In this document: piece after piece, positions 3,140-33,586 of the stretch
Position numbering within the stretch: the first letter of the stretch is position 1
Layout of the letters: each line of letters begins with the position of its first letter
Assembly (NCBI GenBank): GCA_963701855.1
Contig: CAVPBK010000006.1
Coordinates: 1,216,001-1,280,000 of the forward strand
Direction of reading: 5' to 3'
DNA from: Nitrospirota bacterium
GTDB lineage: Bacteria > Nitrospirota > Nitrospiria > Nitrospirales > Nitrospiraceae
DNA length: 64,000 nt
Made by a program: the position numbers and the translations under genes
Notes under the pieces: generated by a model
Told to the model about the DNA's origin: nothing
What the model saw: only the letters and a program-made list of their open reading frames with translations
Database searches by the model: none

Positions 3140-6100
3140 TTACCGAGATGATTGCGGGGGCATCGTGGTGTTGGTATCACAGCCTCCCAGGCTTTGCAAG
3201 GTTGCGGTGAGTTCTCGAAAGATGGAAGGCCAGTCCTGATGCGGCATCTGGAGCTCGAATGAAAGCGGAGACAGGAAGCACACCCGCTTCTTGTACCGGT
3301 CCATCATCCCATGAATCGCCTGGCTTGACACCCGACTCTTGGCGCCGAGCGCGACGACGACGGAATGAGGCTTGAGTTCAATCGAGTCCAGACGCAAGGC
3401 CTTGGCTTGGAGCCGCACCTGCATGACTTCGAACAGTCGCTCGACGGAATCCGGGGCCAGCCCATACCGATCCTGCATTTCGCCATGAAGTAAGGCGAGG
3501 TCTCCGACTCGGGTGCAGGACGAGAGCCGTTTATAACAGGAGAGACGCTGGTGGGGGTCAGCGACGTAGTCATCCGGGATAAAGGCGGAGACGTTGAGCC
3601 GGAGGGTGGGGTCCGGTTCTTCTTCCACCACCTGACCCTTGAGTCGATAGACAGCCTGTTCCACCATTTGCATGTAGAGATCGAGCCCGATGGCAGCAAT
3701 ATGCCCCGATTGCTGTTTGCCGAGGAGGTTGCCGGCGCCACGGATTTCCATATCTGCTGCGGCGATGCGGAAGCCGGCGCCCAGTTCGGTAAACTGTTGA
3801 ATGGCGGTGAGGCGCTTTTGGGCGTCTTCGCTCAATTGCCCCTCATCGGGAACCAGGAAGTAGGCGTAGGCTTGGTCGCCGCTTCGTCCGACTCGCCCGC
3901 GCAATTGGTATAGCTGCGCGAGCCCGAACATGTCGGCGCGATTGACGAAGATCGTGTTGGCATGAGGCACATCGATTCCCGACTGGATAATCGCTGAGGC
4001 GATCAGCACGTCCGCCTCCCTGCGAAAGAATTTCAGCATCACGGCTTCGAGCGGCTTGGCGTTCATCTGCCCATGGGCCATCACGATGCGCGCATCGGGC
4101 ACCAGTTGGTGGAGCCAGGCTCCCGTCTTCTCCATCGTTTCGACCCGATTATGGACGAAATAGACCTGTCCGCCCCTCCCGAGTTCACGCAAGATCGCCT
4201 CTCGGATGAGTGTGTCATTTGATCGGACAACCTGCGTGCGAATGGACAAGCGGCCTGCCGGGGGTGTTTCGATGATTGAGAGATCGCGCACGCTCGCCAT
4301 GGCCATCTGCAAGGTTCGGGGGATGGGGGTGGCTGTGAGGGTCAAGACGTCGACCTGGGTTCGGAGTTGTTTCAATCGTTCCTTGTGTTTGACACCGAAC
4401 CACTGTTCCTCATCGATGATGACGAGGCCTAGATCGCGGAATATCACATCCTTCTGGACAAGTCGGTGCGTTCCGATCACCACGTCGACGGCGCCGGATG
4501 CCACGTCTTTGAGAATGGCTTTAGCCTCCTTCGGCGATTGGAATCGGGAGAGCAAGGCCACGCGAGCCGGGAACGGCGCGAACCGTTCCGAGAAGTTGTC
4601 GTAATGTTGGTGGGCCAACAGGGTCGTGGGGACGAGCACCGCGACCTGACGATTGGCTTCCACCGCCTTGAAGGCCGCTCGCATCGCCACTTCCGTTTTT
4701 CCGTACCCCACGTCACCGCACACCAATCGGTCCATCGGTTTGCTGGACTCCATGTCGTGGGTAATGTCTTCGACCGCTTTGAGTTGATCCGCCGTTTCTT
4801 CGTACTCAAATGCGGCCTCGAACTCGTGGTACATCGTGCTGTCGAATCCATAGGCATGGCGCGTCACGAGTTCACGGCTGGCATAGAGGTCGACCAACTC
4901 GTGGGCCATCTCCTCAATGTCTTGCTTCACCCGCGCGGTCGTTTTGGCCCAACTGGTGCCGCCCAAACGTTCCAGACGCGGCGCATGGCCATCCGCCCCG
5001 CTATATCGCTGCACATGGTTGAGCTTCTCCAGCGGGACGTAGAGCTTGTCGCCGCCGGCGAATTCAAGGATCAAATAATCGCTGTCGAAGTCTTGCACCG
5101 AGAGGCGTTTGAGGCCTTGGTATTTGGCGATGCCATGTTGGACATGGACGACATAGTCGCCCACGTTGAGATCTTCCAGCGAGGAGAGGAAGGTTGCGGC
5201 TTTACTCTTGGCCTGCGGCTTATGGCGCGCGCCTTTGGCAAACAGTTCTTCTTCCGTCAGGATGGCCAGGCGCAAGTTCGGTGCGAGGAATCCCGCGGAC
5301 AAATCGCCGTGCAAGACGTAAAACGGCGATTTGGTTTTACTGGAAGCGGTCCAGGCTCCCACGGTCCACTCTGTTGCCGGCACATCGTGTTCGCGCAAGA
5401 GTGCCAGCAAGCGATCCACTTGGCCGCGACTTCTTGCGACGAGCACCACGCGGCACTCCTCTCGCAGGCGATCCATGATGGCGAGGGTTTGGCTGAAGGG
5501 CATCCCACGAGCCCCGATGCCTGCGCTGGACGGGGTCTGAGCGGGAAAGGCCTGGACCGGGCTCCAGGACGCATTGCTTGCTGTAAGGGGCTCGAGTGCG
5601 AGCATGGGCCAGCTCTGTGTGTGATCCATGAGTTCAGACCAGGAGAGAAACAATCGTTCCGGTGAAGGGTAGGGCACGATCGTTTCTCGATCGGCATGGC
5701 GGAGATAGCCGTCGTCGATCTTGCCCCAGAGGTCCGCGCAGGCCTCTTCCAACGCAGCCGGCTGATCCAGGACGAGTACAGGCTGTTCGGCGAAATAATC
5801 AAAGAGGGTATTCATGTCGGGGTAGAGGTCCGGCGCGCGCCACTCGGCATCCACCGGAATGGGAGCGAGGGCGTCCGACGAAGTCTCCGCACGCAGATAT
5901 TCCCGCGCGGGAAGGACGACCGCTCGATCCAGCTTCGCGGTGGATTTCTGCGTGGCAGGATCGAAGAGGCGGAGCGAATCGACGGTTTCTCCAAGAAACT
6001 CGGCACGCAGCGGGTTAGCGTAGGCCGTTGAAAAAATATCTACAATGCCGCCTCGAATACTGAACTCCCCCGGGATTTCCACCACCGAAACCCGGCGGTA

Positions 6101-12444: not shown

Positions 12445-13701
12445 ATGGCGCAAGACCAACCAGTCAAAGCCTTAGTGCTCGCGTTTACCGATCATGCGAC
12501 GGCGGCAGTCTACTCGATCAATCGTCTGCAGCCGGACTCGCTTTGCTTCGTGTTGCCTGAAGGGGCGAAGTCGCTCATAGAATCCGAGGTCCAGCCGAAG
12601 ATCAAGCACCTGCCTAGACGGTGGGATTGGGTGATTCTCGCAGAGACCGGCGAATTTGTCGGTTGCTATCAGACTCTTGCCAGGACACTCCCGGAAATGT
12701 TGCGTACATGGGAGGTGCATCCGGGCGAACTTGTCGTCGATGTGACCGGCGCCACCCCAGCCATGGCGGGCGCGTTGACGTTGGTTACCATGCCGCTGAG
12801 TTCGCGGATCGTGTCGCTCGTGCCGGCACGAGAGGGGCAGGAGGAGGACAGGATCGATATTGCCGGGCAGCCGTTCATTTGGACGCAGGGAAATCCCTGG
12901 GATGAGGCGGCAACTGTCTCACGTCGCGAGGGCTGCGAGCTGTTCAATCAGAGATTGTTCGCCGCAGCGGCGAAGCTGTTCCGCGAGATCGAAGCACGGG
13001 TGAGCGGCGGGCAGAAACCGCTCTATCGGGCCTTTGCAGACCTGGCAGATGGCTACGATCTGTGGGAGCGATTTCACTATCGTCAAGCCTGGGAAAAACT
13101 CAGGACCGCCGTAAGGGCCTTCGAGATGGCGTCCCTGTGGGGTGGACCACCAGGACTCACGTCCCTGTTACCAGCCATCAAAGCGAATGCGGGATTCTTG
13201 GAAAAGCTCGTCCTTGACCCTGCTCCCGTAAAAGATATGCAGGCCCACGATCTGCTAGCCCATGCCGGTCGGCGATTGCATGGCCTGCACGATTCGGAAG
13301 CAGCAATGGTTTCGCTCGTGCGTGCGCTCGAAGCTTTCGCCCAGCGACAGCTGTTCAAACAATGCCAGATCAAAACTTGGGATGTGCAGCCGGAGCAGTT
13401 GCCGCAGGCGCTGCAAGAAACCTGTCGATCTTGCTGGCTGGAAGATCTCGACGGCAAGTACAAGCTGCCCCTGCAGGCTCAGTTTCGAGCGCTGGCTGGA
13501 TTGGGCGACCAGATGGGCCAAGCCTTTTTGCGCGAGTGGCCGACGATGAAACCCCTGCTCGATGCCGCGCATCATGCCGTCCTCGGCCACGGCTTCGAGC
13601 CGGTGAAAGCCGAGCGGGTGCAGCAGCTATACGACGTGGTCATTAAACTATCGGGCGTCAGCGAGACATCGTTGCCGAAGTTTCCGATGCTGAACGTTTA
13701 G
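12445..13701 (+). CDS. TIGR02710/Csm6-like CARF-helical-HEPN protein with degenerate motifs
   Basis: CARF VVDVTGATPAMAGAL; NPW, LFN, GYDLWERF, RALEAFAQ; C-terminal AHHAVLGHGF in place of RNxSxLAHG. Confidence 0.8.
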   Translation: MAQDQPVKALVLAFTDHATAAVYSINRLQPDSLCFVLPEGAKSLIESEVQPKIKHLPRRWDWVILAETGEFVGCYQTLARTLPEMLRTWEVHPGELVVDVTGATPAMAGALTLVTMPLSSRIVSLVPAREGQEEDRIDIAGQPFIWTQGNPWDEAATVSRREGCELFNQRLFAAAAKLFREIEARVSGGQKPLYRAFADLADGYDLWERFHYRQAWEKLRTAVRAFEMASLWGGPPGLTSLLPAIKANAGFLEKLVLDPAPVKDMQAHDLLAHAGRRLHGLHDSEAAMVSLVRALEAFAQRQLFKQCQIKTWDVQPEQLPQALQETCRSCWLEDLDGKYKLPLQAQFRALAGLGDQMGQAFLREWPTMKPLLDAAHHAVLGHGFEPVKAERVQQLYDVVIKLSGVSETSLPKFPMLNV

Positions 13702-13885
13702 CGCGACGTGTTCGGGGAAGTCTTGAGGACACGAGAACAGGGTTCAGACATGTCGTTCAGGGCGGTAAAGACTGGTCTAACGGAAAATCAAGCGTTTATG
13801 GGTTGCCGAGATGCTGGGTTCCGTGAGTTCAAATTATTATGAGTTTGAAAACTAATCTGACAGCCGTGCAGAGTTGACTGCGCGA

Positions 13886-14275
13886 TCATTTCTTGCCGCA
13901 CGCAAGCTTCCACAGAGTGTGGTCAAGACTATCTGATGAAATTCGTAGCCACTTGCCTTTTCCTGAGCTACGATCAATTACATTACCATTTCCCATATTG
14001 CCAGAAAAATACATGACCGCAAGCCCCTCATAGCGCTGTTCGGCACAGTCATAATCCATGTGCGCTTTTGCCGACGAATATGAGACTCCTTCCTTGGTTC
14101 GTACTGTCTTGAAGTCGAACAGTACCCACATCTTCACCAGATCCCCTTCTCGGCGTATGGTGGTTGGATCCGCATATACAGTCGTTCCTGAGTCGCTTTC
14201 GCCAAGCGACATCCAGTCTGCATACGCAGGTCCGTTACTCAGGAAGAAAAGGATGATTATAAGCAGTCGTGTCAT
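13886..14275 (-). CDS. Surface-adhesin E-like exported protein
   Basis: Signal peptide AYADW, VYADPTTIRR, YDC, terminal LWKLACGKK. Confidence 0.75.
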   Translation of the reverse strand: MTRLLIIILFFLSNGPAYADWMSLGESDSGTTVYADPTTIRREGDLVKMWVLFDFKTVRTKEGVSYSSAKAHMDYDCAEQRYEGLAVMYFSGNMGNGNVIDRSSGKGKWLRISSDSLDHTLWKLACGKK

Positions 14276-14312
14276 GTATCTCACCTTGAACCGTGCAGCG
14301 ATGGCTACCCGA

Positions 14313-14709
14313 TTACTTTTTGCTGCAAGCAAGCTTCCCCAGGTCGGATGAAACGCTCCCTGGTGCAACAGGTTTCCACTTTTGTTTATTTGAGTCCTTA
14401 GAAACCACCTTGCCACTCCCCAACCATATTGCCAGGGAACTTCATAAGTGTAATTATCCGCTCGCGGTCTTTTGTGCAGTCGTACTCGTGTTGCGCCTTG
14501 ACAGACAAGTACGAGATGCCACTTACGATTTGTACAGTCTTGAAGTCGTTCAAATGCCACACCTTCACCAGACTCCCTTTGCGGTGAATGGTGCCTGGAT
14601 CGGCGTATACAGTCACTCCTGCTTCCTCGTTGCCACCAACCGCCACCCACTCCGCATACGCTGGAACGCTACTCAGGAAGAAAAGGCTAAATAGAAGTAG
14701 TCGTGTCAT
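14313..14709 (-). pseudogene. Tandem adhesin-E-like paralog, frameshifted near 14420
   Basis: Same N-terminus as 13886-14275; after GNM another frame gives GSGKVVSKDSNKQKWKPVAPGSVSSDLGKLACSKK*. Confidence 0.75.
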
Positions 14710-14927
14710 TAGGTTGCCCCCGCGTAACAGATCGTCAGTATTGCGGGTGAAACTGTGGAAGTGTGCGCCCATTTGAGGGAGAGTTCAAATGCAACTTGGA
14801 GCAGCTTCGCGGTACCTTGCGGGGGTCAAGGGTTGGTCGCTACGGACGAGTGCGGAGAGTCTGAGGCGTGTCTACCGCAGGCTTGGCTCGGGGGTCTCGG
14901 TGAAGAGCGGACTGCGACGGACCCTAC

Positions 14928-15035
14928 TCAGCAGCCCTTGAACTGCGTTGCCTGACAATGTTGCGCGAGTCGCTGGGCTTCTGCAATCTGCGAGGGAGTC
15001 ATACTACGGGCGGCCTAATCTCGATTGTCTGCTGC
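14928..15035 (-). pseudogene. 3' remnant of a Sel1-repeat protein gene
   Basis: AADNRD*AARSMTPSQIAEAQRLAQHCQATQFKGC* matches the C-terminus of 55701-56498 (SADNRESVARRMTDTQIAKGQQLSQQCQAQQFKGC*). Confidence 0.8.
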
Positions 15036-15405
15036 TTTGATTTTCTGCGCCATTCTTCATGTACAGCTCAATTGCGTCCTTGGCATTTGCCGCGGTGACA
15101 GTGTCCTTGAACACGAACCCGCTTGATTCAAGATGAGTCTTTTGCCATTTCTTACCATAGGCTCCGAAGACTACACACTGCACAACGCTTCCCACATTGA
15201 TGATGAGATTAGCTTGCTCCATTCCAATGCTCGCAGCCGCAATACCCCAAATCGCAAAGAACGCGCCTAACACTCCAAACCCCAACGCCCACATCTTTTT
15301 GGACAGCGCCCAGAAGGGACCAAACCCGCAAGCATTCCACGACCAACCTTGCTCAACAGCCTCATAGCCTCCTTGAGGGTTTGCATAGACCTCGAATTGC
15401 TTCAT
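15004..15405 (-). CDS. DUF2628-like membrane protein
   Basis: AVEQGWSW..FGPFWALSKKMW, two TM segments, GFVFKDTVTAAN; GAAGGA RBS. Confidence 0.7.
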   Translation of the reverse strand: MKQFEVYANPQGGYEAVEQGWSWNACGFGPFWALSKKMWALGFGVLGAFFAIWGIAAASIGMEQANLIINVGSVVQCVVFGAYGKKWQKTHLESSGFVFKDTVTAANAKDAIELYMKNGAENQSSRQSRLGRP

Positions 15406-15478
15406 GTGTCTTTTCCTTCGGTATGGTCGATAACACGATTGCGAAGAGTCTGCGGCGTGACTACTGCGAGCGTGGAGA

Positions 15479-15814
15479 CTAACGAGGAACAGGAAGTTCA
15501 AACAGGAAACGAATGCCCACTATATACATGGTGACGCAGCCGCTTATGGGAATGAGGCGAGTCCAACACACTTCCACCAGTTTGGTAATCTGCTCTTTTC
15601 TCGACTCTGAAGGCACCAGAATCTCGATCACCTGTCGTGTGTTCACTTTCTCAGGAAGCAAGAGCAACATGCCGCTACCGCTGCAATTGATCGAGTGCCC
15701 GTGCCCTTCTGAAAACTCCACAGTGTTGCTGTCCACAAAATTTGCCAACTCGTAGGAGTACGTTCTCCCGCAGGGCACACGCTCGCTATCTCTTCGTTCC
15801 TGTTGATTTGGCAT
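15479..15814 (-). CDS. Stand-alone PilZ-domain protein
   Basis: RRDSER (RxxxR) and NCSGSG (N/DxSxxG), VCW, GIRF. Confidence 0.78.
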   Translation of the reverse strand: MPNQQERRDSERVPCGRTYSYELANFVDSNTVEFSEGHGHSINCSGSGMLLLLPEKVNTRQVIEILVPSESRKEQITKLVEVCWTRLIPISGCVTMYIVGIRFLFELPVPR

Positions 15815-16301
15815 ATCTATTTCCAGGATTGTTGTAGGCGCTAACACCAGACTCGTTAGGCGGGATTCTGCTCCCGGGTCGAGGACATTTGCAAACCCTC
15901 TTTCGTATGGAGCCATTCAGCCAGTTCTACTGTCATGCCCCTCATGTTTGACGCGATACGTGTTTATCGAAAACGCTGGAGAGTTGCGTCAAGCACTTCA
16001 AGCTCCAGTGGCATATAAGGGTAGCAGATCATCGTGGGTCTAAAACATCGACTGAGAGTCTGTCAGAGAGAGACTCGCATCGACGATTGGAGTGGTGAGT
16101 ACGAAGTTCTGCGAAGAGTCTAGATGCTCTTGAGGAAAGTTGTGTTTGTGGAAGGGGGGAGACGATCACTACTTCACAGTTGTTTCCCGAACATTGGTGT
16201 ATTATCGTTGGGTTATCTCAATTAGAAAAGCAAAATATGGCATGAAATGTTGTTGTTTGTTATGAGCAGAAACGGTCAAACTCCAAGTCATTGATACTAT
16301 T

Positions 16302-16682
16302 ATGGACATTCGCATCTACTACGAAGATACCGACTGCGGCGGGGTGGTGTACTACGCGAACTATCTCAAGTATTTCGAGCGGGCGCGGACACAGTATCTC
16401 GAAGAGCGTGGGTTGTCCGTGGCCGGGCTCATGAAGGAAGGCACGGTGTTCGTCGTGGTGCATGCCGAAGTTGATTACAGATCTCCAGCCCGCTATGGCG
16501 ACAGGTTGGTCATCGAAACGGTTGTTTCCGACATGACGGCAGCCTCTTTCACGTTTTCACATGTGATCCGAGAGAAGGAGAGCCGGCAAGTGGTCGTCGA
16601 AGGATCGGCCAGGTTGGCGGCAACGGATGGAAATGGAAAAGTGAAGCGACTCGACAAGGCGATGATCGCCGTATTAAAATAA
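16302..16682 (+). CDS. ybgC: YbgC/FadM acyl-CoA thioesterase
   Basis: RIYYEDTDCGGVVYYANYLKYFERART. Confidence 0.9.
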   Translation: MDIRIYYEDTDCGGVVYYANYLKYFERARTQYLEERGLSVAGLMKEGTVFVVVHAEVDYRSPARYGDRLVIETVVSDMTAASFTFSHVIREKESRQVVVEGSARLAATDGNGKVKRLDKAMIAVLK

Positions 16683-16706
16683 TCGTCTTGAATAAGGAGT
16701 CATGAA

Positions 16707-16859
16707 ATGGAAACGGAGTGGGTGGGTTTTGGATGGGCAGGGATCGGAAGCTGGGTCATCATGGCCGGTTGGACAATCGGTTTAGCCATACTTGCCTGGT
16801 GGTTTTACATGCCAAATCCGATGGCTAAAGATGGCAAGAAGGACAAGAAGAAGTTGTAA
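16707..16859 (+). CDS. 50-aa single-pass membrane protein
   Basis: AAGGAG RBS 7 nt upstream; METEWVGFGWAGIGSWVIMAGWTIGLAILAWWFYMPNPMAKDGKKDKKKL*. Confidence 0.7.
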   Translation: METEWVGFGWAGIGSWVIMAGWTIGLAILAWWFYMPNPMAKDGKKDKKKL

Positions 16860-16952
16860 CCCAACTGTACGTATTCCCCTCCAGCGCAACCTTCGCCATC
16901 ACAAGATTTATCCAACATGACGGGGCTCATCGGTCGCTAGAACGCGCTGCGC

Positions 16953-17134
16953 TAACCCGCATTATTCATGAAGGTTCGTTGCGAAAGCGTGCAGACGCGA
17001 CGCGAGACGGGCACTTGGAGCCGTGAGACCCTGAGGCATACTCGTGCAGTATGGCAAAGGGCTGAACGGCGAGACTGGCCGTCGTAGCAGCGTATCCGCG
17101 CTTGCAGCAGAAGCGTCATGAATAATGTGGGTTA
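16953..17134 (+). mobile_element. MITE-like element, family B
   Basis: TIRs TAACCCGCATTATTCATGA / TCATGAATAATGTGGGTTA; interior similar to 51553-51766. Confidence 0.8.
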
Positions 17135-17171
17135 AGGGCGACCCAACAGCAAGGCCATTGGACGGGCTAAG

Positions 17172-17615
17172 TCAACTCTCTGGCGGGACTTGTTTATCGC
17201 GTATGTGCCGGTTTAGCGCTACGCCGAGTTCTTGGCACTTATTCATGAGGCCTTCATAGGTCTTGAGGTTGGCGTTGTACTCGGCCATCGGATACTTGCT
17301 GAGATCACCTTGGCTCTTCTCATAAAACCGCCCACAGATATCCCGGAGGGCTTGGATAGTTTCGAGCAACGCCGCTGTGTATTGGCGTGAAACCTCCAAC
17401 GATCCCGGCTCGGTTTTTAATGCCGCCGAAATAGCAGTCAGTTTGGAGGCTAACCGATCGAGGTCTTTAAAATGAGCCCCAAAATCCGTGGCCTTGAAAA
17501 GCCCTGGAATTGGGAGTGTCTTGCGCCATGAAAACTTAAAGATCGCGTCATGAATGGCGACGTATTCGCCAAGAATGGCATTCGTTCGGGTCAGCTCCTC
17601 GGGAAGGTCCGGCAT
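17172..17615 (-). CDS. Hypothetical all-helical protein, probable gene cassette
   Basis: 147-aa ORF starting just downstream of an attC core that is interrupted by a MITE. Confidence 0.7.
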   Translation of the reverse strand: MPDLPEELTRTNAILGEYVAIHDAIFKFSWRKTLPIPGLFKATDFGAHFKDLDRLASKLTAISAALKTEPGSLEVSRQYTAALLETIQALRDICGRFYEKSQGDLSKYPMAEYNANLKTYEGLMNKCQELGVALNRHIRDKQVPPES

Positions 17616-17637
17616 ATCTCACTCACGAGAGTGTGGC

Positions 17638-17762
17638 TGGCCCGTATCATTTATGCGCGCTTCGCTGCAATTGTATCCTCGCATGCGGGATACGAGGTTG
17701 GCTTCACGAGAAACGAGCTTTCTGGAGATATCGAGACAAACCGTCATGAATAATGCGGGCTA
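17638..17762 (-). mobile_element. MITE-like element, family B (short, inverted)
   Basis: Ends TGGCCCGTATCATTTATG / TCATGAATAATGCGGGCTA. Confidence 0.72.
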
Positions 17763-17848
17763 TCGACCCAAGCTCAGCGACCGGCTTATGAGGAGCGTAG
17801 ATTCACCCCCTGTGCGATGGCTTGGAATGGTGCAGCTGTTGGTTAAGC
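17758..17848 (-). other. Integron attC site (degenerate)
   Basis: Minus strand GCTTAAC (contains the ORF stop) ... GTCGCTGAGCTTGGGTC-GATAGCC. Confidence 0.7.
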
Positions 17849-18055
17849 GTTATCTTTGCTTCGTCTCTCCCGTTTCCAAGCTCCCCAGGCATAGAAAAAC
17901 CCAACCGGTGCGCTGATGAGGCATACCCATGCCAGAGGAGACGATTCTGCGAACAGCCAACCGGCAAAAGCGGTATAGATCACTGCTCCTCCAAAGTAGA
18001 CATACCAAGGAATCTTGTCTCTTTTTTCAGAAGGTGTATTGGATTGCGATGTCAT
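17843..18055 (-). CDS. 70-aa two-TM protein, gene cassette
   Basis: Preceded by GTTAGGC and GGAG RBS; stop lies inside the R'' box. Confidence 0.68.
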   Translation of the reverse strand: MTSQSNTPSEKRDKIPWYVYFGGAVIYTAFAGWLFAESSPLAWVCLISAPVGFFYAWGAWKRERRSKDNA

Positions 18056-18080
18056 CGAGTGCTCCGAAGCGCCTCGTGAG

Positions 18081-18173
18081 GCCTAACTATGTATTATCTG
18101 GTTCCGGATAACAAGCCACGTGCTCTTCCTCCGAAACATTTCACGTTTCACTGACTGCTGGACTGGTTAGCCA
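18081..18173 (-). other. Integron attC site
   Basis: Minus strand GGCTAAC (contains the YcxB stop) ... GTTAGGC. Confidence 0.7.
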
Positions 18174-18661
18174 TCGACTTTTCCGCCTGACTCACGAACG
18201 CGCTGCACAATATACGCCTGCGTTTCTGGAGGCAAACACGCGAGCGGCAACGTGCTGAACTGTGCCTTTGAGTACAGCAATAGCCACACGCTTGGGAACT
18301 GCCACAACTCTTTGACGGCTGACCACTGAAGCGTGGTCGTGCCGATGTCCGAACTCATGGTGAACGAGGATTCGTCAGCACGGAACATCGCTCGAGGCTG
18401 GCCCATCTGACGGAACTTGTGCAGCGATCTACGATAGTGCACGACATAGACAACAATGGCGAACGCGATGCCCACCAACAGTACGGCTGCAAGACCACCG
18501 ATGATCCAAGAGGACTGACCTAGCGCCACGAGCACAACGAGCCCGAGCGCTGCAATAAGAAGCGCAACAAAAAATCCGACACCGACGGTGCGCCGCCAAA
18601 ACGCGAATACCGCCTGATGTAGCAACGCCTTGCTGTAAATGAGTGTGGCATCGTGGGGCAT
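18167..18661 (-). CDS. YcxB-family membrane protein, gene cassette
   Basis: Two TMs then TTLQWSAVKELWQFPSVWLL..FSTLP; the ORF-track extension is translated attC (GRVAELGS). Confidence 0.8.
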   Translation of the reverse strand: MPHDATLIYSKALLHQAVFAFWRRTVGVGFFVALLIAALGLVVLVALGQSSWIIGGLAAVLLVGIAFAIVVYVVHYRRSLHKFRQMGQPRAMFRADESSFTMSSDIGTTTLQWSAVKELWQFPSVWLLLYSKAQFSTLPLACLPPETQAYIVQRVRESGGKVDG

Positions 18662-18664
18662 GGT

Positions 18665-18757
18665 GGCTACCGATCCAAGCTCAGCGACCCGGCCCACGCG
18701 GGGCGCAGATTGCCACCACAGCGCAATGGCTTGGTTCGCAGCAAGGCATGGCCAGGC
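18665..18757 (-). other. Integron attC site (degenerate)
   Basis: Minus strand GCCTGGC-CATGCCTTGCTGCGAACC ... GGGCCGGGTCGCTGAGCTTGGATC-GGTAGCC; 3' arm nearly identical to attC at 17758. Confidence 0.7.
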
Positions 18758-18998
18758 GCTCGTCATCATGCTCTCAATCTACCAACACAAAGTGATGGAA
18801 TGCTACTGGGAACAACATGACCAGCCTGATGCCGGGCAGTGGAGCAACTCGTGTACGTGGATGCGCGAAAAGAAGAGGAGAGGAGTTGAGCTGACTGCGT
18901 GCCGGCACACTACTTCTGCCAGGCAGATCAATGGTTTCTGGAACCTATATCCGTTCCTCAGCAGCTTTAGAGGCAGGATGGAACGTTTGGCAACGGCA

Positions 18999-19424
18999 CT
19001 AATTCATCCCAGGAATCGGAGGCACTTGAAAAAGGGTCACAAGCAATTCTTCTTTCGCGTCGGCAATACAAAGCCATCGAAGAGCGTCATCTATTTTCCG
19101 GAAGATCTGCAGCTCATGGGGCGAGTCGTCAGACAAAATTTGGTACATACGCGCCATGCCGAAGACTACGTCGCTAGTGATTACCACGGCGCGCCGGGCA
19201 CCGGCCCCGAAGGGATTCAGCCTGACCATCTCTCTGATTGTGGAGACAGTGATCTGGACGTCTGTCACATCACGCAGGTCGGCGAGCTGGCGAAAGTCCC
19301 GCGCGAAGCGTGGATCAGAGGTCAGAGTACGTACGTGTGCCAGAAGCTCTCGATCCGTCACTAAGTCCCATCCGCGGGATAAGACTAAGGACCGCGCCAG
19401 GTCGATTGTGTAGCCGCAAGGCAT
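18999..19424 (-). CDS. STAS/SpoIIAA-like hypothetical protein
   Basis: QLADLRDV, RRAVV..SDVVFGMARMYQ, QIFRKIDDALRWL. Confidence 0.7.
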   Translation of the reverse strand: MPCGYTIDLARSLVLSRGWDLVTDRELLAHVRTLTSDPRFARDFRQLADLRDVTDVQITVSTIREMVRLNPFGAGARRAVVITSDVVFGMARMYQILSDDSPHELQIFRKIDDALRWLCIADAKEELLVTLFQVPPIPGMN

Positions 19425-19550
19425 AGTGTGAAGCCTATGGTAATTCACAGGACGCCGCAAGAGGGGACGAGCGCGGGAAGGCGAAACTTCGTATGCGGCG
19501 AAGGAGATGGGGTCACAATGATCCGACCCGTGTGACCCTTACCCCACGGC

Positions 19551-21134
19551 TTAGCCGAAGAGTTTTCCCTGCGGCTGCACATCGGACCTGATCTCCGGCC
19601 AGCGCTCGACAAACGATGCTGCAGAAATGCGTGCCAGCTCGCTCGGCTCAATCTTGTTCAAACCGCCACCGTAAACCCGGCCTTCGCCACGGAGTTCGTG
19701 GCCAGTAACTTGACCGAGCAAAGCGTGGACAGTTTCGGCACGGTCGGGATGTCGGCGAAGCATCATCGCGAGGTTGTTCTGCGGGTAGAGCATCAGGTAG
19801 AGATTGGTTCCAATCGCCTTCGAGCGGTTCCAGATGAAGCGGAACGGCTGCTTGTCGTTAGAGCCGCGGCCCATGTATGTGCAGAGGAACGGGGTGGGCT
19901 CTCGCTGTTCCTGCTTGTACCACGGGGTGCGCTTGCCGATCAGATAGCCGTCCATGATGCCGAGCGCCTGGGCGGACCTCAGGTATTCCCAAAGTGCCGG
20001 GTGCTTGGCCTCGACGATCGGCTCGGGCAGGTTGCAATCGATGACGCACAGCTGGCGGTCGAGGAGGGGGTAGCCGTCACCGTCCGCGTCGACGCTCGTG
20101 GTCTTTAGATATCGTGGGCTGGGAAGAATTGGTCGGAGGAATTTGCTCGGTAGGCCGAGGCTTTTCGCGTCGGCGCGGGCGAGCACGAAAAACTTGTTGC
20201 AGCCGGTGGCGATGCCTCGCTGGACGCGGAAGAAGTCGCCAAGCGTCGGGCCGTTACTGTCGCTACGCGTATGTCGGTCGTTCTTGGCGTGACTCGGATA
20301 CAGGGTCCACTTGCGCGACTCGCGCAATCGTTCACGCGGGATGAGGTCGCGAGCATGCGGCTCGGCCAGCGTGCCGCCATAGGTAAATTCAACGTCATGA
20401 GTGGCGGCGGGCGGCGTCTTGCGGAACACCAGCACGACCGACGACACAAGGGCGTCACCGAACTGAACATCGTCTGGGTCAAAGCGGTGAGCCCGGATAA
20501 GCGTAACGCGATCCGCGAGGAAGCCCTTGAGTGCCGTGCCGTAGTTGACGTCCATGAACTCCGAGGGGATGAGCCACGCGGCGATCCCACCGTCTTCCAT
20601 CCAGGCCGTGGCGAGCAAAAGAAAGTAGACGTACAGACCTGCAAGGCCGTTGACTTCAACTCCGGTCATCGTGAACGTGAGACTTTGGAGGCGTTCCTTG
20701 TCCTCTCGATTCATGTGATGGTGTCGGACGTAGGGCGGGTTCGCCAAGATAACGTTGGGCGCGAGTGGGCATGAGCCGGTCGCAACGACTCGCGTGAAAT
20801 CGCCGCGCACAACCTCAAGCCCGGCATGGGCCCACAGATTGCGGGCGGCGTCGGCGAATGCGGGATCGAGCTCAACCCCGATGGCGCTGCTGATTCGCTT
20901 GGAGCCAAAGACAGCGAGCGCCGCCGAAAAGAAGCTGCCTGAACCGATCGAAGGGTCGGCAAAGCGAATACTGCCTTTGGTCCGGCCGAGGACTGATTGG
21001 ACGTAGCGAGCGATCTCGACAGCGAATGCATTAGGCGTTGCGAATTGGCCAAGGCGATTCCGCTCGGATTGGGTTCGGCATCCGTCGATCAACCACTGCG
21101 CGACCTGTCGTTCGGATTCGATGCTATGGATCAT
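19551..21134 (-). CDS. Type II N6-adenine DNA methyltransferase (gamma class, XamI/Eco57I-like)
   Basis: LGQFATP, DPSIGSGSF (motif I), NPPY (motif IV), GRVYGGGLNKIEP; ATG 21134 overlaps the upstream TGA. Confidence 0.9.
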   Translation of the reverse strand: MIHSIESERQVAQWLIDGCRTQSERNRLGQFATPNAFAVEIARYVQSVLGRTKGSIRFADPSIGSGSFFSAALAVFGSKRISSAIGVELDPAFADAARNLWAHAGLEVVRGDFTRVVATGSCPLAPNVILANPPYVRHHHMNREDKERLQSLTFTMTGVEVNGLAGLYVYFLLLATAWMEDGGIAAWLIPSEFMDVNYGTALKGFLADRVTLIRAHRFDPDDVQFGDALVSSVVLVFRKTPPAATHDVEFTYGGTLAEPHARDLIPRERLRESRKWTLYPSHAKNDRHTRSDSNGPTLGDFFRVQRGIATGCNKFFVLARADAKSLGLPSKFLRPILPSPRYLKTTSVDADGDGYPLLDRQLCVIDCNLPEPIVEAKHPALWEYLRSAQALGIMDGYLIGKRTPWYKQEQREPTPFLCTYMGRGSNDKQPFRFIWNRSKAIGTNLYLMLYPQNNLAMMLRRHPDRAETVHALLGQVTGHELRGEGRVYGGGLNKIEPSELARISAASFVERWPEIRSDVQPQGKLFG

Positions 21135-21763
21135 GGTCGTAGAATGTCGTTTGACAGCGCACTGATAACGTCTAGATACATGTCCAGAACGGTTCCGTGA
21201 GTTTGATCTGCCGGATCGTAACTCCCTAGAAAGCTCCCTGGCGTACATCGGGGTGGGAGTATCGTCAGCTTCTGTCGAACGAGTTCCTCAAACTTCCCAC
21301 GTGCATCGTCGGAGTGATGAGTAATTGCATTGCGTACCCTCTTCATTTCCTGGATTACGACGTTCTCTGCTCGAAGCTTGTTAAAGCAACTTCCTTGCCG
21401 GAAGACAAGGTCTGCTCGATCGGATACCTGAATCGCGTCGGTCCAGTCAAGGTAGGGGCGATTGCCAGAAAGCTTGTTCAAGAATCTCCACGCTGATGGA
21501 AAGTCCGGTGGGCGGTAGTACCGATGCGGTGGACGCCCGTGCAGTGGCTTGTTGCCCATAAGGTAGCTTAAAAAAGCGTCTTCAAGGAATCGCTCCCATG
21601 CAACGAAGGTTCGCAAGAACGCCACCTCGTACAGAACCTCGTGGAGGTTCTTGGGTGCGTTCGGCGTCTGCAACCCTGCCCGCGCAGTCACTCGTGCGGC
21701 ATGAAGCGACCCAAGCGAGCCCCGCTCAATTGCACGGAATCCAACGACCCTAGCCGAAGGCAT
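21131..21763 (-). CDS. HEPN-domain putative RNase
   Basis: FLRTFVAWERFLEDAF helix and RNAITH (RxxxxH); start ATG 21763 inferred. Confidence 0.78.
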   Translation of the reverse strand: MPSARVVGFRAIERGSLGSLHAARVTARAGLQTPNAPKNLHEVLYEVAFLRTFVAWERFLEDAFLSYLMGNKPLHGRPPHRYYRPPDFPSAWRFLNKLSGNRPYLDWTDAIQVSDRADLVFRQGSCFNKLRAENVVIQEMKRVRNAITHHSDDARGKFEELVRQKLTILPPRCTPGSFLGSYDPADQTHGTVLDMYLDVISALSNDILRP

Positions 21764-21852
21764 AATCAAAGTACCATAGCGAATCAGATCACAAAGGAAC
21801 TTCACTCTCAATTCTCGCTCAGGTTGAAGTGTTGTGGCACGCTTTGCCGCAT

Positions 21853-22806
21853 TTAGAAACGCTTTCTCGTGCTCGTTCCGTCGTCCGTGTTCCAAAATTG
21901 GTGAACTTCAGTTAACTGGCTCATAAGACGTGCAGCTTTCGTCTGACTAATTCGGGCACGTCGAGCATTGAGTTTTGGAAGGCCGAATTGCATGTGCGCC
22001 ACTGCACAGAAGAGGGAGTAGAAAAGAACAGGCCGGCAGAATTCGTGATCGGCCAACCTGTCGGGGAATAGCATACCGATCGTGTCGATGGTCGATCGAA
22101 ATTTATTCTCAAGAGCCGAGCGACCGGGAAGATCGTCATCCCATTGTTTAAAATAGGAATCTAGCCGCCCCTTGTCCTGAATGCCATCAGCCATGGGAAT
22201 GAGTAAGTCTGCGCTCAGTTCAGCATCGATCATGCGGGAAATCGAAGCTTCGGAGAGAATTTCGTTCTTAATCCAGAAGCTTTCGAACTCGTTACCGATC
22301 GCAAAACCAGGAGTACGAAAGGCACGATAGAACTCGGCATGAAGTAGTTCGATCTTGTTTAACTTGACACGGTAAGTATTGAGCCTTGCAAAGATGTCAC
22401 GCACCTCAGGATCACTGATGTTGATAAGGCAATCGGTGGCAATCTGATAGGCGCGGATGGATGTCTGTACGTCATCCGGAAGCTGACGGAAGTAGATACA
22501 CGCGTACTCTTTATTATGAGTCCGAGAGACCGGGAAAGCATCTTCCATGTATTCAAAAATGGCGCGCAGACGCTGTTGTCCGTCTACGACCTCTCGCATG
22601 GTCTTCCGCGTTGCGGTGCTGATGTGTTCTCTGATTAGGATTTTTGGTGTGGGCTTCCCGCGGATAACGGAGTCGAGAAGATAGGATTTGGCCTTCTTTG
22701 TCCATACTTTGCGCCGTTGAAACTTTGGCGATAGCTCTAGGATGCCACCCTCTTTCCATTCGACGAAGTCATTGATCGAGTAAGTCTTGGTTTGGAACTG
22801 ATTCAT
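21853..22806 (-). CDS. DUF262 (GmrS/ParB-like) protein, probably frameshifted near its 3' end
   Basis: PKFQRRKVW, VVDGQQRL, IFARLN hallmark motifs. Confidence 0.88.
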   Translation of the reverse strand: MNQFQTKTYSINDFVEWKEGGILELSPKFQRRKVWTKKAKSYLLDSVIRGKPTPKILIREHISTATRKTMREVVDGQQRLRAIFEYMEDAFPVSRTHNKEYACIYFRQLPDDVQTSIRAYQIATDCLINISDPEVRDIFARLNTYRVKLNKIELLHAEFYRAFRTPGFAIGNEFESFWIKNEILSEASISRMIDAELSADLLIPMADGIQDKGRLDSYFKQWDDDLPGRSALENKFRSTIDTIGMLFPDRLADHEFCRPVLFYSLFCAVAHMQFGLPKLNARRARISQTKAARLMSQLTEVHQFWNTDDGTSTRKRF

Positions 22807-23156
22807 TCTTGAAAATCCTCCGGGTGGAACGCCAGTTTACCTTCCCCCGTGCGGCCGACAAGGTGATTGCTGGAGTCCGCCAAGCCGATTAAGCGATTCA
22901 CGGCAAGGCGTTGAGCCGTACACATGTGGAGAGTCGGCAAGGCGCTGGGGTTCGCCTTGAGCTTGGCTGCATCAAGGCTGCGAAGGTTACGGGTCGCCAA
23001 AAGTGCGGCTTTGACATGTTCGGCCTTATTCACGCGTGTCGCGCGAAACGCCTCGGGTGCGAAGCGCATGAACCATTGGTTGAACTGGTCAACGGAAGCC
23101 GCGATGTCGGTCTTCCAGAGGTGCGGCTTGTCCGCATTGATTCGTCTAGCCATCAT
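22803..23156 (-). pseudogene. N-terminal fragment of a XamI-family restriction endonuclease
   Basis: INADKPHLWKTDIAASVDQFNQWFMRFAP resembles XamI-family N-termini; ends at 117 aa with no catalytic half. Confidence 0.75.
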
Positions 23157-23417
23157 GAATCCGTACGTTGATCGGTATCGGGTTTTCGGCTGTCGCGGTT
23201 ACTGTCTTGGGACGTACCTATTAAGTGAGTTGCGAGAGGGATCTTAGGCCTGGCGGCCTATTCCTCAAAGGATTCCTCTCTCTGTTGAACCAAAGTCCCA
23301 GACACTATCCTCACTTCGGGAAACTCTGTCAAGAACCGCCCGTAGAAAAACACTGTTACTTACGAGCCTATCTCTCTATTGGCTCGCCGCCTATTTTCGC
23401 ATGACCAATTGCCGAAA

Positions 23418-32376: not shown

Positions 32377-32937
32377 ATGATGCCTAACGGTATGGGGCGG
32401 CTAGTGTTTATTCTGTGTCAGTTGCTTGTTCTGGTGTTGTCGGCCGGAGATGGACTCGCGCAGACCGGATCCCTCAAGCACTCACCGGCGGATGTGGTAA
32501 AACGATATCTGGCGCTCGATTATAAGGGGGCGCGGCTCGATGCCATGTCGGCCGAAACGGTCGCGTCCTACACGAGTTGGAGTGAGGAGCCGGCGTGGGG
32601 GCATGTCGTCGTGACGCGAGGTTTTGTCGTGGCTGAGCAGTACCGCCAATGGGAGGTGATCGATAGGCTGGAAGTCGTGATTCCAGTCACCTTTCAGGTC
32701 ATAGGCTCGGTGTATCTGGAAACCGCCGGGTTCATCCAGGAGACTGAAACAGAAGAGGTTCGATTTCGCGTGAAAGCCGTTAAGAATCGATGGAAGATTG
32801 TCGAGCCGATGCTTCCCCCTCATGTGGGGCAAAAGCGGATGGCGAATTTTGTGCGCGAAGCCCGGGGGAAGGAAACCGACCCGGCAAAGCAAGACCGTCT
32901 GGGGGTATTACAAGAAGAGTTGCGAAAGGCAAAGTGA
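32377..32937 (+). CDS. Exported hypothetical protein
   Basis: Signal peptide; operonic with the downstream HAD gene. Confidence 0.75.
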   Translation: MMPNGMGRLVFILCQLLVLVLSAGDGLAQTGSLKHSPADVVKRYLALDYKGARLDAMSAETVASYTSWSEEPAWGHVVVTRGFVVAEQYRQWEVIDRLEVVIPVTFQVIGSVYLETAGFIQETETEEVRFRVKAVKNRWKIVEPMLPPHVGQKRMANFVREARGKETDPAKQDRLGVLQEELRKAK

Positions 32938-33586
32938 TGATGGGGAAGACCTCGGTCGAGCTGTTGATCTTCGATTTGGATGGAACGCTCATCGAGTCCA
33001 AATGGGACATTGCCGCGTCGGTGAATTTCACGTTGGCCGAGCTGGGACTGCCGCAGCGGCCTACCGAGGAAATCTTTGGGTTTGTAGGGGATGGGGTGAA
33101 ACAACTGTTGCGCTTGTCGATCGGTGAGGGTAGCCGAGTCACCTTCGACGAGGCGTTGCGGGTGTTCAGAGGCCAGTACTTAGCCCATTGCCTCGATCGC
33201 ACGACATTCTATCCCGGTATTGATGAGATGCTCACGCATTTCGCAGGCAAGCGGAAGGCGGTCGCCACCAACAAGTCAATCGAGTACACCAACGTGATTC
33301 TCCAGGGACTGGGGGGAATCATTTTCAGTTCGTCGTCGGAGGCGATCGCGGGTTTGGATTGAAGCCGGAGCCGGGCATGCTGTTGCATGTGATGGAACAA
33401 TTGAACGTGCCGAAAGAACAGACCGTGCTCGTCGGGGACAGCACCAACGACATCAACGGCGGGCATAATGCCGGGATTCGTGTCTGTGCGGTCGGGTACG
33501 GCATGGGGAATCGCAGCAAAATGGAAGCCTGCAAGCCGGATTGGTTCATCGAACGACCGGAACAACTCATGGAGCTATTCGTATGA
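32937..33586 (+). CDS. HAD phosphatase (Gph-like), frameshift at G6 run 33311-33316
   Basis: FDLDGTL and ATNK in one frame; KPEP and VGDS..D in another; adding one base joins them. Confidence 0.85.

Follow-up and report, generated by a model that had tools for sequence, protein, structure and literature searches.

Gene content of the locus

We examined the minus strand of a 64,000-nucleotide stretch of a Nitrospirota genome (the window), where positions 19551..23156 carry four co-oriented ORFs encoding a XamI-type endonuclease stub, a DUF262 protein, a HEPN protein and a methyltransferase (Table 1). This arrangement had been reported in a preliminary description made from the sequence, and it holds, as do the two ATGA overlaps placed at 22803-22806 and 21131-21134. 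Rfam and tRNA searches of the window gave no match, and none of the stub, DUF262 and HEPN proteins has an NCBIfam family.

Table 1. Features of the locus, in window coordinates
Feature	Position	Strand	Evidence
Conserved promoter-bearing element, putative attI/Pc-like integron platform remnant	23215..23395	-	73-78% identity, five genus-mates
Sigma-70-like promoter TTGACA-17-GATAGT, likely operon driver	23304..23332	-	10/12 consensus; hexamers conserved in relatives
5' third (108 codons) of XamI-type restriction endonuclease gene	22833..23156	-	Pfam PF09572; PADLOC REase_II; residues 1-108 of 319 by tblastn
DUF262 leader with GGAG ribosome-binding site and ATGA overlap	22803..22832	-	unalignable to intact endonucleases
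DUF262 (ParB-like NTPase) with helical C-terminal domain	21766..22806	-	Pfam GmrSD_N 6e-20; 346 codons in homologues
Stretch between the two indels breaking DUF262	21773..21881	-	indels absent from 4/4 runs compared and from L016
HEPN protein, 210 aa, R144-x4-H149, predicted RNase effector	21131..21763	-	invariant R/H; HEPN fold
First ~23 methyltransferase codons, carried with the module	21061..21134	-	94% identical to L016 over 71 nt
Amino-methyltransferase of XamI-type system, 527 aa, intact	19551..21134	-	PADLOC MTase_II 7e-158

The first ORF had been described as a 117-aa XamI-like stub. It does match RE_XamI (Pfam, 8e-7; PADLOC REase_II, residues 6-109 of 315) and aligns with codons 1-108 of an intact 319-aa relative, but its last nine codons and stop are DUF262 leader and not endonuclease, and the ATGA shared with DUF262 stems from that leader. 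The stub lacks the catalytic part of the enzyme. Measured against a XamI-type type II restriction-modification (R-M) system (PF09572), the genome has lost the catalytic two-thirds of the endonuclease; tblastn found no C-terminal remnant or other further match in it. The cognate amino-methyltransferase is retained as an uninterrupted frame that includes motif I and NPPY, intact as originally described.

As assembled, the DUF262 gene is frameshifted, which the preliminary description missed: its ORF stops at 317 aa (21853), and close homologues are 346-350 aa long (346 aa in 21 of the 22 cluster members retrieved), extending ~30 residues past that point. A base is missing at ~21881 and one is extra at 21773, and because of these indels the last ~30 DUF262 codons fall in the HEPN frame; neither indel occurs in the contigs of the runs compared (Table 1). 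The window protein also has 14 private residues, where each of 21 homologues has 0-5; the 14 are all confined to positions 103-309 and several of them radical (G146R, G161R, A204P, T166P); G161 is invariant in 106 DUF262 sequences. The contigs of run X1, which are shallow (depth 2-5), show no differences from the window in four of the pieces listed, 950 bp in total, but have neither indel, and 16 of the 18 window-X1 substitutions are transversions with one strand bias, whereas the natural divergence in X3, X7 and X8 is transition-rich. Genome-wide, 5 of 103 genes were frameshifted, compared with 3 of 106 in a control; this background does not mark the assembly as unusually error-prone, and the count failed to separate consensus error from decay. 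Overall, the damage to DUF262 is likely consensus error, which we favour about twofold over real decay. The DUF262 motifs are present in the window ORF, and the residues of QR-x3-W, DGQQR and F-x-R-x-N are invariant in 106 homologues. A structure model of homologue P0012 matches BrxU, ParB and SspE, the model of the 346-aa protein is helical after residue 130, and the DUF262 alignment had no match among PDB sequences.

The start of the HEPN gene, previously placed at 21895, is corrected to the ATG at 21763; the extra N-terminal residues come from the DUF262 tail, displaced by the frameshift, which rules out a DUF262-HEPN fusion or a 254-aa HEPN protein. The reading of RNAITH as the HEPN motif is borne out by its R and H, which all 134 aligned homologues conserve without exception. 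The best structural matches of the HEPN model are HEPN toxins (Z 9.8, rmsd 4.0, 125 aligned), and the top structural rows are HEPN domains with Z of 7.7-9.8, a size that is modest for helical bundles; Foldseek alone gave nothing for this model at E 0.001. From the model and the motif we predict an RNase effector carrying R-x4-H on a HEPN helical fold.

Upstream, the element at 23215..23395 stands 5' of differing cargo ORFs in five genus-mates, and its end coincides with the start of the leader common with the R-M allele and with the attC position in G004 and G052. An attC site bounds the intact R-M pair on both sides in G004 and upstream in G052, and both of these genomes have TIGR02249 (IntI) matches above the cut-off. 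The parent R-M pair thus appears to be an integron-type cassette in relatives, a feature missed in the preliminary description. The attI/Pc-like label for the element is tentative, and the element has no IntI next to it. The window genome has no TIGR02249 match above cut-off, fragments only, and a scan of the window locus found no attC, the same scan giving 0-3 matches on shuffled controls. Promoter sites of the kind listed in Table 1 are not above shuffles in the region (2 versus 1.9).

Replacement of the endonuclease and recurrence of the gene order

In genus-mates the XamI-type endonuclease-methyltransferase pair is intact, and in G004 it occupies the same chromosomal site as the window locus. 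The proposal that the DUF262-HEPN module occupies the endonuclease slot is upheld by this comparison, the slot measuring 737 bp in the intact allele and 1782 bp here. An intact endonuclease lies directly 5' of the methyltransferase in 37 of the 41 non-module loci of the methyltransferase family; two of the remaining four are cut by contig ends and two are without an endonuclease. Along the window locus, similarity changes partner. Positions 23037-23156 are 91-98% identical to intact alleles, 22857-23036 reach merely 66-80% identity to either allele type, and 22856 to 21061 are 90-97% identical to the module locus L016 in the bins listed. From 21060 down, identity is 85-95% to intact alleles, and the preceding methyltransferase 5' end (21061..21134) has no blastn alignment to them. 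The right crossover lies near 21061-21065, other contigs showing loose ends at 21062-21065, and the left joins are of at least three kinds, at endonuclease nt 323, ~296 and ~264. By these alignments, the window locus appears to be a recombination mosaic of an intact R-M allele and the module. As a side observation, the same sequencing runs contain contigs of either allele type, the loose ends in X3 and X8 resembling the methyltransferase start of the intact allele.

Methyltransferases of genus-mates are 89-93% identical to that of the window locus, which is nested in the tree among methyltransferases of intact systems, and the module-linked methyltransferases do not form one clade (p-AU 0.0001, 4 rows versus 10; a 45-row tree agrees). 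This test rules out descent of module and methyltransferase together as one lineage, and the methyltransferase body exchanges freely between module loci and intact systems. Its relatives in 8 viral loci and 11 plasmid records are all less than 60% identical, and none of the viral loci has the module. The XamI site is GTCGAC. Among the 64 six-base palindromes this hexamer ranks second in depletion in the genome (0.63), which is a weak hint only.

We found the order DUF262-HEPN-methyltransferase in seven other loci, Planctomycetota included, which with the window locus make up the eight "close loci". L016 aligns with the window over 3279 bp at 87.7% identity through all four genes, and both joins are crossed by single contigs from two studies (X7 record 24, 21036-23089; X8 record 29, 21036-23058). 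The question whether the sequence is chimeric at 22803 is thereby answered in the negative: although the region has apparent consensus errors, an assembly chimera unique to the window genome is refuted by L016 and these contigs and retains a negligible probability.

DUF262-HEPN-methyltransferase is an invariant unit in all eight close loci, and in each the HEPN stop overlaps an in-frame methyltransferase start, across saturated synonymous divergence. The three genes are under purifying selection (dN/dS 0.06-0.19 for DUF262, 0.09-0.29 for HEPN and 0.07-0.17 for the methyltransferase). The stub is variable. Three loci (L018, L020, L025) have a similar GGAG leader before DUF262 without an in-frame XamI stub reaching it. 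In L020 and L025 the stub is absent and the unit begins at a G|TTAGGG box 46-47 nt upstream of DUF262. In all, of the 7 close loci for which upstream sequence is available, 4 have the stub missing, frameshifted or ended at a different codon; a role for the stub is thus unsupported, and a functional stub is rejected. Its low dN/dS (0.06-0.20) is explained by time spent inside intact endonucleases, and it is likely a dispensable leftover recombination arm. Separately, 15 of 40 family loci have a GTT box 5' of DUF262, a count made without a shuffle control and given no weight here.

The DUF262-HEPN family and known systems

Across the family, 76 of 80 genome loci have HEPN next after DUF262, the other four ending within 470 bp, and the HEPN family comprises 1303 clusters at 50% identity. 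In 62 of the 72 distant loci the nearest ORF is not an R-M gene. The pair also lies directly behind solitary methyltransferases of two further types, unrelated to this one, in L042, L082 and L097 and in L038, with no PADLOC endonuclease match among the scanned neighbours of these four loci; a second DUF262 clade (4 rows, 100% support) is found in this position. The pair is part of a widespread, uncatalogued family found in many phyla, for which no PADLOC model fits.

PD-T4-2, to which the pair had been likened, shares its two-gene DUF262-HEPN architecture, but the pair fails the PD-T4-2 sequence models. According to Vassallo et al. 2022 (PMC9519451), PD-T4-2 defends E. coli K-12 and its native strain and consists of DUF262 followed by HEPN with RNA-x-x-H, at 375 + 167 aa as against 346 + 210 aa in our family. 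Identity to the pair is 26%, in the DUF262 part only, and the two HEPN proteins have the motif alone in common (hhalign probability 12%). The PD-T4-2_A model matched residues 10-89 only, at 59 bits, compared with 538 bits for the control protein; PD-T4-2_B had no match in the window and reached 1 of 134 members, at 7e-4 (control protein, 213 bits). The E. coli copy of PD-T4-2 that we examined adjoins a polarity-suppression gene and an integrase at ssrA, without a methyltransferase. Among HEPN families, RiboL-PSP-HEPN (PF18735) and MAE_28990 (PF18737) (Anantharaman et al. 2013, PMC3710099) match 35 and 3 of the 134 relatives, respectively, in Pfam at E up to 0.01, and neither matches the window protein; the nearest named Atlas cluster is PF18735, with 28% of members. 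In its text on these two families PMC3710099 gives no function and describes no endonuclease replacement.

Closest on the DUF262 side is Menshen NsnA, a DUF262 and helical domain without HNH nuclease, which is the best PADLOC match for 106 of 106 members; the NsnB ABC ATPase and NsnC effector of Menshen are absent here, the downstream genes being HEPN and methyltransferase. Dazbog likewise has DUF262 and a helical domain without HNH, and it is described as abortive with a phage methylase as trigger; its name is absent from the PADLOC matches, in a search without positive control. The type IV systems GmrSD, BrxU and SspE have the DUF262 NTPase motifs and fold in common with the window family. 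The DUF1524 HNH domain of GmrSD and BrxU is absent here, whether fused or adjacent (Pfam gives GmrSD_N only), and the predicted effector is instead a separate RNase, HEPN. Known R-M operons may hold a co-oriented defence module between intact genes; here the module replaces the type II endonuclease instead.

Interpretation of the locus

Building on direct observation of gene content, replacement relative to intact alleles, mosaic boundaries, recurrence and purifying selection, we think it probable, though well short of assured, that a two-gene DUF262-HEPN module, predicted to be abortive and anti-phage and likely autonomous, has taken the place of the 3' two-thirds of a XamI-type endonuclease gene. 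It was likely inserted by recombination, with the methyltransferase gene common to both alleles and the endonuclease 5' end as arms. The analogy of BrxU, SspE, Dazbog and PD-T4-2 suggests how the module would act: the DUF262 protein, which is ParB-like, would bind DNA and NTP; it may sense modified or otherwise foreign phage DNA and activate the HEPN RNase, which would arrest the infected cell. The methyltransferase may have stayed intact for two reasons: it would serve as an arm for the exchange, and loss of the endonuclease gene would oblige a cell to go on methylating until the remaining enzyme has decayed. Against autonomy of the module stand the overlap of HEPN stop and methyltransferase start in all eight close loci and the pairs behind solitary methyltransferases of two further types; the ordinary frameshift background and the shallow X1 contigs weigh against consensus error in DUF262.

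The module of this particular strain may be dead, DUF262 being a pseudogene and the orphan methyltransferase alone working, with the family unaffected. The two indels, the private residues, the frameshift background near the control rate and the scans that found no intact IntI in the genome and no attC at the locus all point that way, but the one-directional transversions are unlike natural divergence, X1 is identical to the window over the other pieces, and decay would be expected to strike first the unrestrained HEPN RNase, whose R and H are intact; we regard a dead module as doubtful, though the most serious of the alternatives. Less likely again is a methylation-licensed three-gene system, in which the methyltransferase would mark self, DUF262 would detect unmethylated incoming DNA and the HEPN RNase would be triggered, that is, R-M logic with an RNA-cutting abortive effector instead of an endonuclease. 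The constancy of the three-gene unit beside a variable stub, its start at the G|TTAGGG box without a XamI stub in two loci, and the second clade favour it, and the occurrence of the pair beside solitary methyltransferases of three unrelated types keeps it under consideration. Dependence on the methyltransferase, whether by reading its marks or by guarding it as the preliminary description suggested, is nevertheless unproven, because most distant loci have no adjacent R-M gene and the methyltransferases are interchangeable with those of intact systems; moreover, characterised DUF262 systems, in the parts of PMC10952713 and 10.1101/2022.08.27.505566 that bear on this, react to modified and not to unmodified DNA. 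We give a similarly low probability to the broader proposal that R-M was rewired to abortive RNA cleavage with three unrelated methyltransferases, one form invading XamI-type loci, knocking out the endonuclease and keeping methylation.

A guard arrangement as in PrrC, with the methyltransferase or stub restraining a HEPN RNase that phage anti-restriction attack would free, is very improbable. It would accommodate the HEPN-methyltransferase translational coupling of all close loci, and the relevant part of PMC3710099 proposes HEPN-R-M guard logic for many clades, but the stub is lost or broken in 4 of the 7 loci, most family members lack an R-M partner, and no working endonuclease remains to guard.

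On the replacement reading that we prefer, the locus shows one defence system displacing another at a fixed address, with resident genes as recombination arms. The natural versions with and without a methyltransferase allow a test of whether a partner methyltransferase can license DUF262 sensors, with a response to unmodified DNA; if such sensors cannot be licensed in this way, the locus would represent ordinary defence turnover at an integron-derived hotspot. The DUF262-HEPN family itself, given its tight pairing, its spread over many phyla and the lack of a fitting PADLOC model, is a ready defence candidate.

Gene content of the locus and its intact counterpart

The four co-oriented minus-strand ORFs and both ATGA overlaps of the preliminary description are seen in the window sequence. 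The first ORF, a 117-aa stub, resembles RE_XamI (Pfam) and a type II endonuclease model of PADLOC, the match covering the first 109 residues. GmrSD_N (DUF262) is the match of the second ORF, the fourth encodes a type II amino-methyltransferase (MTase), and the third, the HEPN gene, has no match of its own in Pfam or PADLOC. The HEPN model has a pLDDT of 96 and HEPN toxins as its top structural matches. The stub corresponds to codons 1-108 of the 319 in an intact relative's endonuclease, and tblastn found no further endonuclease piece in the 4.3-Mb genome, in agreement with the claim that no C-terminal remnant persists. The stub ends in nine codons that belong to the DUF262 leader, so its overlap with DUF262 is no evidence for stub function.

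The MTase was found in 6 of 85 genus genomes, with an intact endonuclease directly upstream in G004, G052, G105 and G008; the contig of G111 is cut. At non-module loci of the MTase family the endonuclease is present in 37 of 41, two others being cut and two lacking it. The intact pair of G004 occupies the same chromosomal site as the window locus, 737 bp of that allele corresponding to 1782 bp in the window, which bears out the view that the DUF262-HEPN pair (the module) sits in the endonuclease slot. Window positions 23037-23156 are 91-98% identical to intact alleles, 22856 to 21061 resemble L016, another module locus (90-97% in the bins listed), and the part below 21060 shows 85-95% identity to intact alleles versus 73-90% to L016. 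Loose contig ends in sequencing runs X3, X7 and X8 fall at 23032 or 21062-21065; sequence at the 21065 ends resembles the MTase start of the intact allele. Module-linked MTases are interleaved with intact-system MTases, and a single clade was rejected (p-AU 0.0001) on a quick tree of 14 rows grouped by gene context, the test having been chosen after a 45-row tree was seen. Judged from these comparisons, the window locus is a mosaic of intact allele and module, with the direction of each exchange between allele types unrooted. Separately, open frames of ∼860-880 aa (L127, L128, L130, L141-L147) cover both endonuclease and MTase matches, form their own clade and are apparently natural XamI-type fusions.

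Canonical attC hairpins bound the G004 intact pair on both sides, and G052 has one attC upstream; both genomes have IntI above cut-off, each on another contig. In the window, the leader that it shares with the intact allele lies after an element carrying a promoter, and relatives have different cargo behind this element. An attC scan found no attC at the window locus, and a profile search no intact IntI remaining in its genome (G000). We infer an eroded integron-cassette site; R-M and HEPN-type systems are reported to occur in integrons (10.1101/2024.07.02.601686).

Features noted in the window, in its genome and at homologous loci
Feature	Location	Observation
Small co-oriented minus-strand genes	window 13700-19500	degenerate repeats between (16950-17134, 17731-17825, 18660-18734); likely an eroded cassette array
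Tandem paralogues, small secreted-type protein	window 13864-14772	copy 14398-14772 apparently shifts frame close to its end when compared with the other copy
Motif	near window 18095	matches G052 first-cassette junction
Frameshifted gene	window 32790-33583	relative to G004 orthologue
Second, unrelated DUF262+HEPN pair in G000	C6:175546-177723 (L178:1046-3223, minus strand)	GmrSD_N 1e-24; HEPN_RiboL-PSP 1e-12; MAE_28990 2e-10
IntI fragments	C6:177961-178097	second pair lies just downstream
Unit within type IIG gene	L020:271-600 and about 4100-4200 (flanking pieces)	between N-terminal and apparent C-terminal pieces
Pair in type I R-M locus	L032:1540-7677	after hsdM-hsdS, before HEC-06/GmrSD-like gene
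XamI-type MTases	L110:4938-6569, L134:1486-3075	no upstream endonuclease match; one in viral contig
MTase-DUF262-HEPN operons	L042:5242-8819, L082:5201-8818, L097:5206-8727, L038:5758-8712	Blastocatellia/Pyrinomonadaceae and Anaerolineae

Recurrence of the arrangement and frameshifts in the DUF262 gene as assembled

The alignment of L016 with the window runs through stub, DUF262, HEPN and MTase for 3279 bp, with 87.7% identity, and single contigs from two studies (X7 record 24, X8 record 29) span both joins; the order recurs, which answers the concern that it was unique or a chimeric join. In all eight close loci (the window, L016-L019, L020=L024, L025 and L026; three carry a Planctomycetota label) an in-frame start of the MTase overlaps the stop of HEPN. 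Their DUF262 proteins, seven rows being long enough to include, form one clade with 100% support, and purifying selection acts on DUF262, HEPN and MTase alike in this group. One join, at endonuclease codon 108, is common to the window, L016 and L017; in L018 the endonuclease is interrupted at about nt 264, with a frameshift, and in L026 at about nt 296, with added filler, and L025 has no stub (the L019 record includes no upstream sequence). In L020 the DUF262-HEPN-MTase unit appears to take the place of the middle of a type IIG gene, a second instance of such replacement, the C-terminal piece being assigned by eye.

Both module genes are present as described, but the DUF262 reading frame, as assembled, is broken by two indels and the HEPN gene starts at 21763, giving 210 aa as in its homologues. 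Close homologues extend ∼30 residues beyond the end of the 317-aa window DUF262 ORF, and the tail missing from it is encoded in the HEPN reading frame; relative to L016 DNA, one base is absent near 21881 and one is extra at 21773. Fourteen residues of the window protein, all between 103 and 309, are absent from the 21 full-length cluster members compared (22 were fetched, a 293-aa partial being left out), each of which has 0-5 private residues. Among the altered residues is G161, invariant in 106 homologues.

Neither indel is found in contigs of the four runs compared. X1 contigs are identical to the window over four pieces (950 bp) and carry 18 substitutions overall, of which 16 are transversions with one strand bias, whereas differences in X3, X7 and X8 are mostly transitions. 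These patterns favor consensus error, which we regard as appreciably more probable than real decay of the window copy, although the X1 contigs are shallow and frameshifts in ordinary genes are of similar frequency here (5/103) and in the control (3/106), where some cases mirror the same events.

Function of the DUF262-HEPN family

The HEPN profile returned 1303 clusters at 50% identity, and the motif R and H are invariant across 134 aligned sequences. Among the best 80 of 265 genome matches to the DUF262 family, the same HEPN lies directly downstream in 76, the other four ending within 470 bp, and a XamI-type MTase adjoins the pair in only three. At distant loci with HEPN, an R-M gene is a neighbor in 10 of 72 and absent from 62 (nearest ORF each side, one duplicate dropped; 129 proteins, one added by hand).

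PD-T4-2, also DUF262 plus HEPN, is reported to protect against T4 (PMC9519451). Because this family fails PD-T4-2 models that a positive control passes, it is not a member, though by analogy it likely works in a similar way. Operons that combine RiboL-PSP-HEPN with ParB, or MAE_28990 with both ParB and DNA methylases, have been listed (PMC3710099); Menshen is described beside solitary methylases, with sensing of unmodified DNA raised (PMC12065111), Dazbog as responding to a phage methylase (10.1101/2022.08.27.505566; PMC10952713), and defence genes as embedded in R-M-like operons (10.1101/2024.01.29.577857). Literature that mostly excludes subscription papers, and to which preprint supplements (such as Payne's candidate tables) may add, yielded no account of this family or of a type II endonuclease replaced by such a pair.

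The structural model of a homologue of the ParB-like DUF262 protein matches BrxU, ParB and SspE. By comparison with published DUF262 systems, this protein would sense DNA state and hydrolyse NTP, and the HEPN protein would cut RNA and arrest the cell. Since R-M neighbors are missing from most of the family and the MTase body is exchangeable, we lean towards a self-sufficient pair. The MTase may then persist because it offers an arm for exchange and shields the cell until leftover endonuclease is gone. The unbroken HEPN-MTase coupling in the close loci and three unrelated MTase partners speak for a licensed system of MTase, DUF262 and HEPN, which we nevertheless consider doubtful; a PrrC-like guard is very improbable.

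Four of the 10 distant loci with an R-M neighbor stand out: a 577-588-aa beta-type MTase lies directly upstream of the pair in L042, L082 and L097, and an unrelated 416-aa MTase in L038, with no PADLOC endonuclease match among the neighbors scanned. The DUF262 proteins of these four group together with 100% support, separately from that of the window, and ∼230 aa at the N-terminus of the Blastocatellia MTases carry no annotation. The window arrangement is real, recurrent and explicable, and these four operons are the best test cases for coupling to the MTase.
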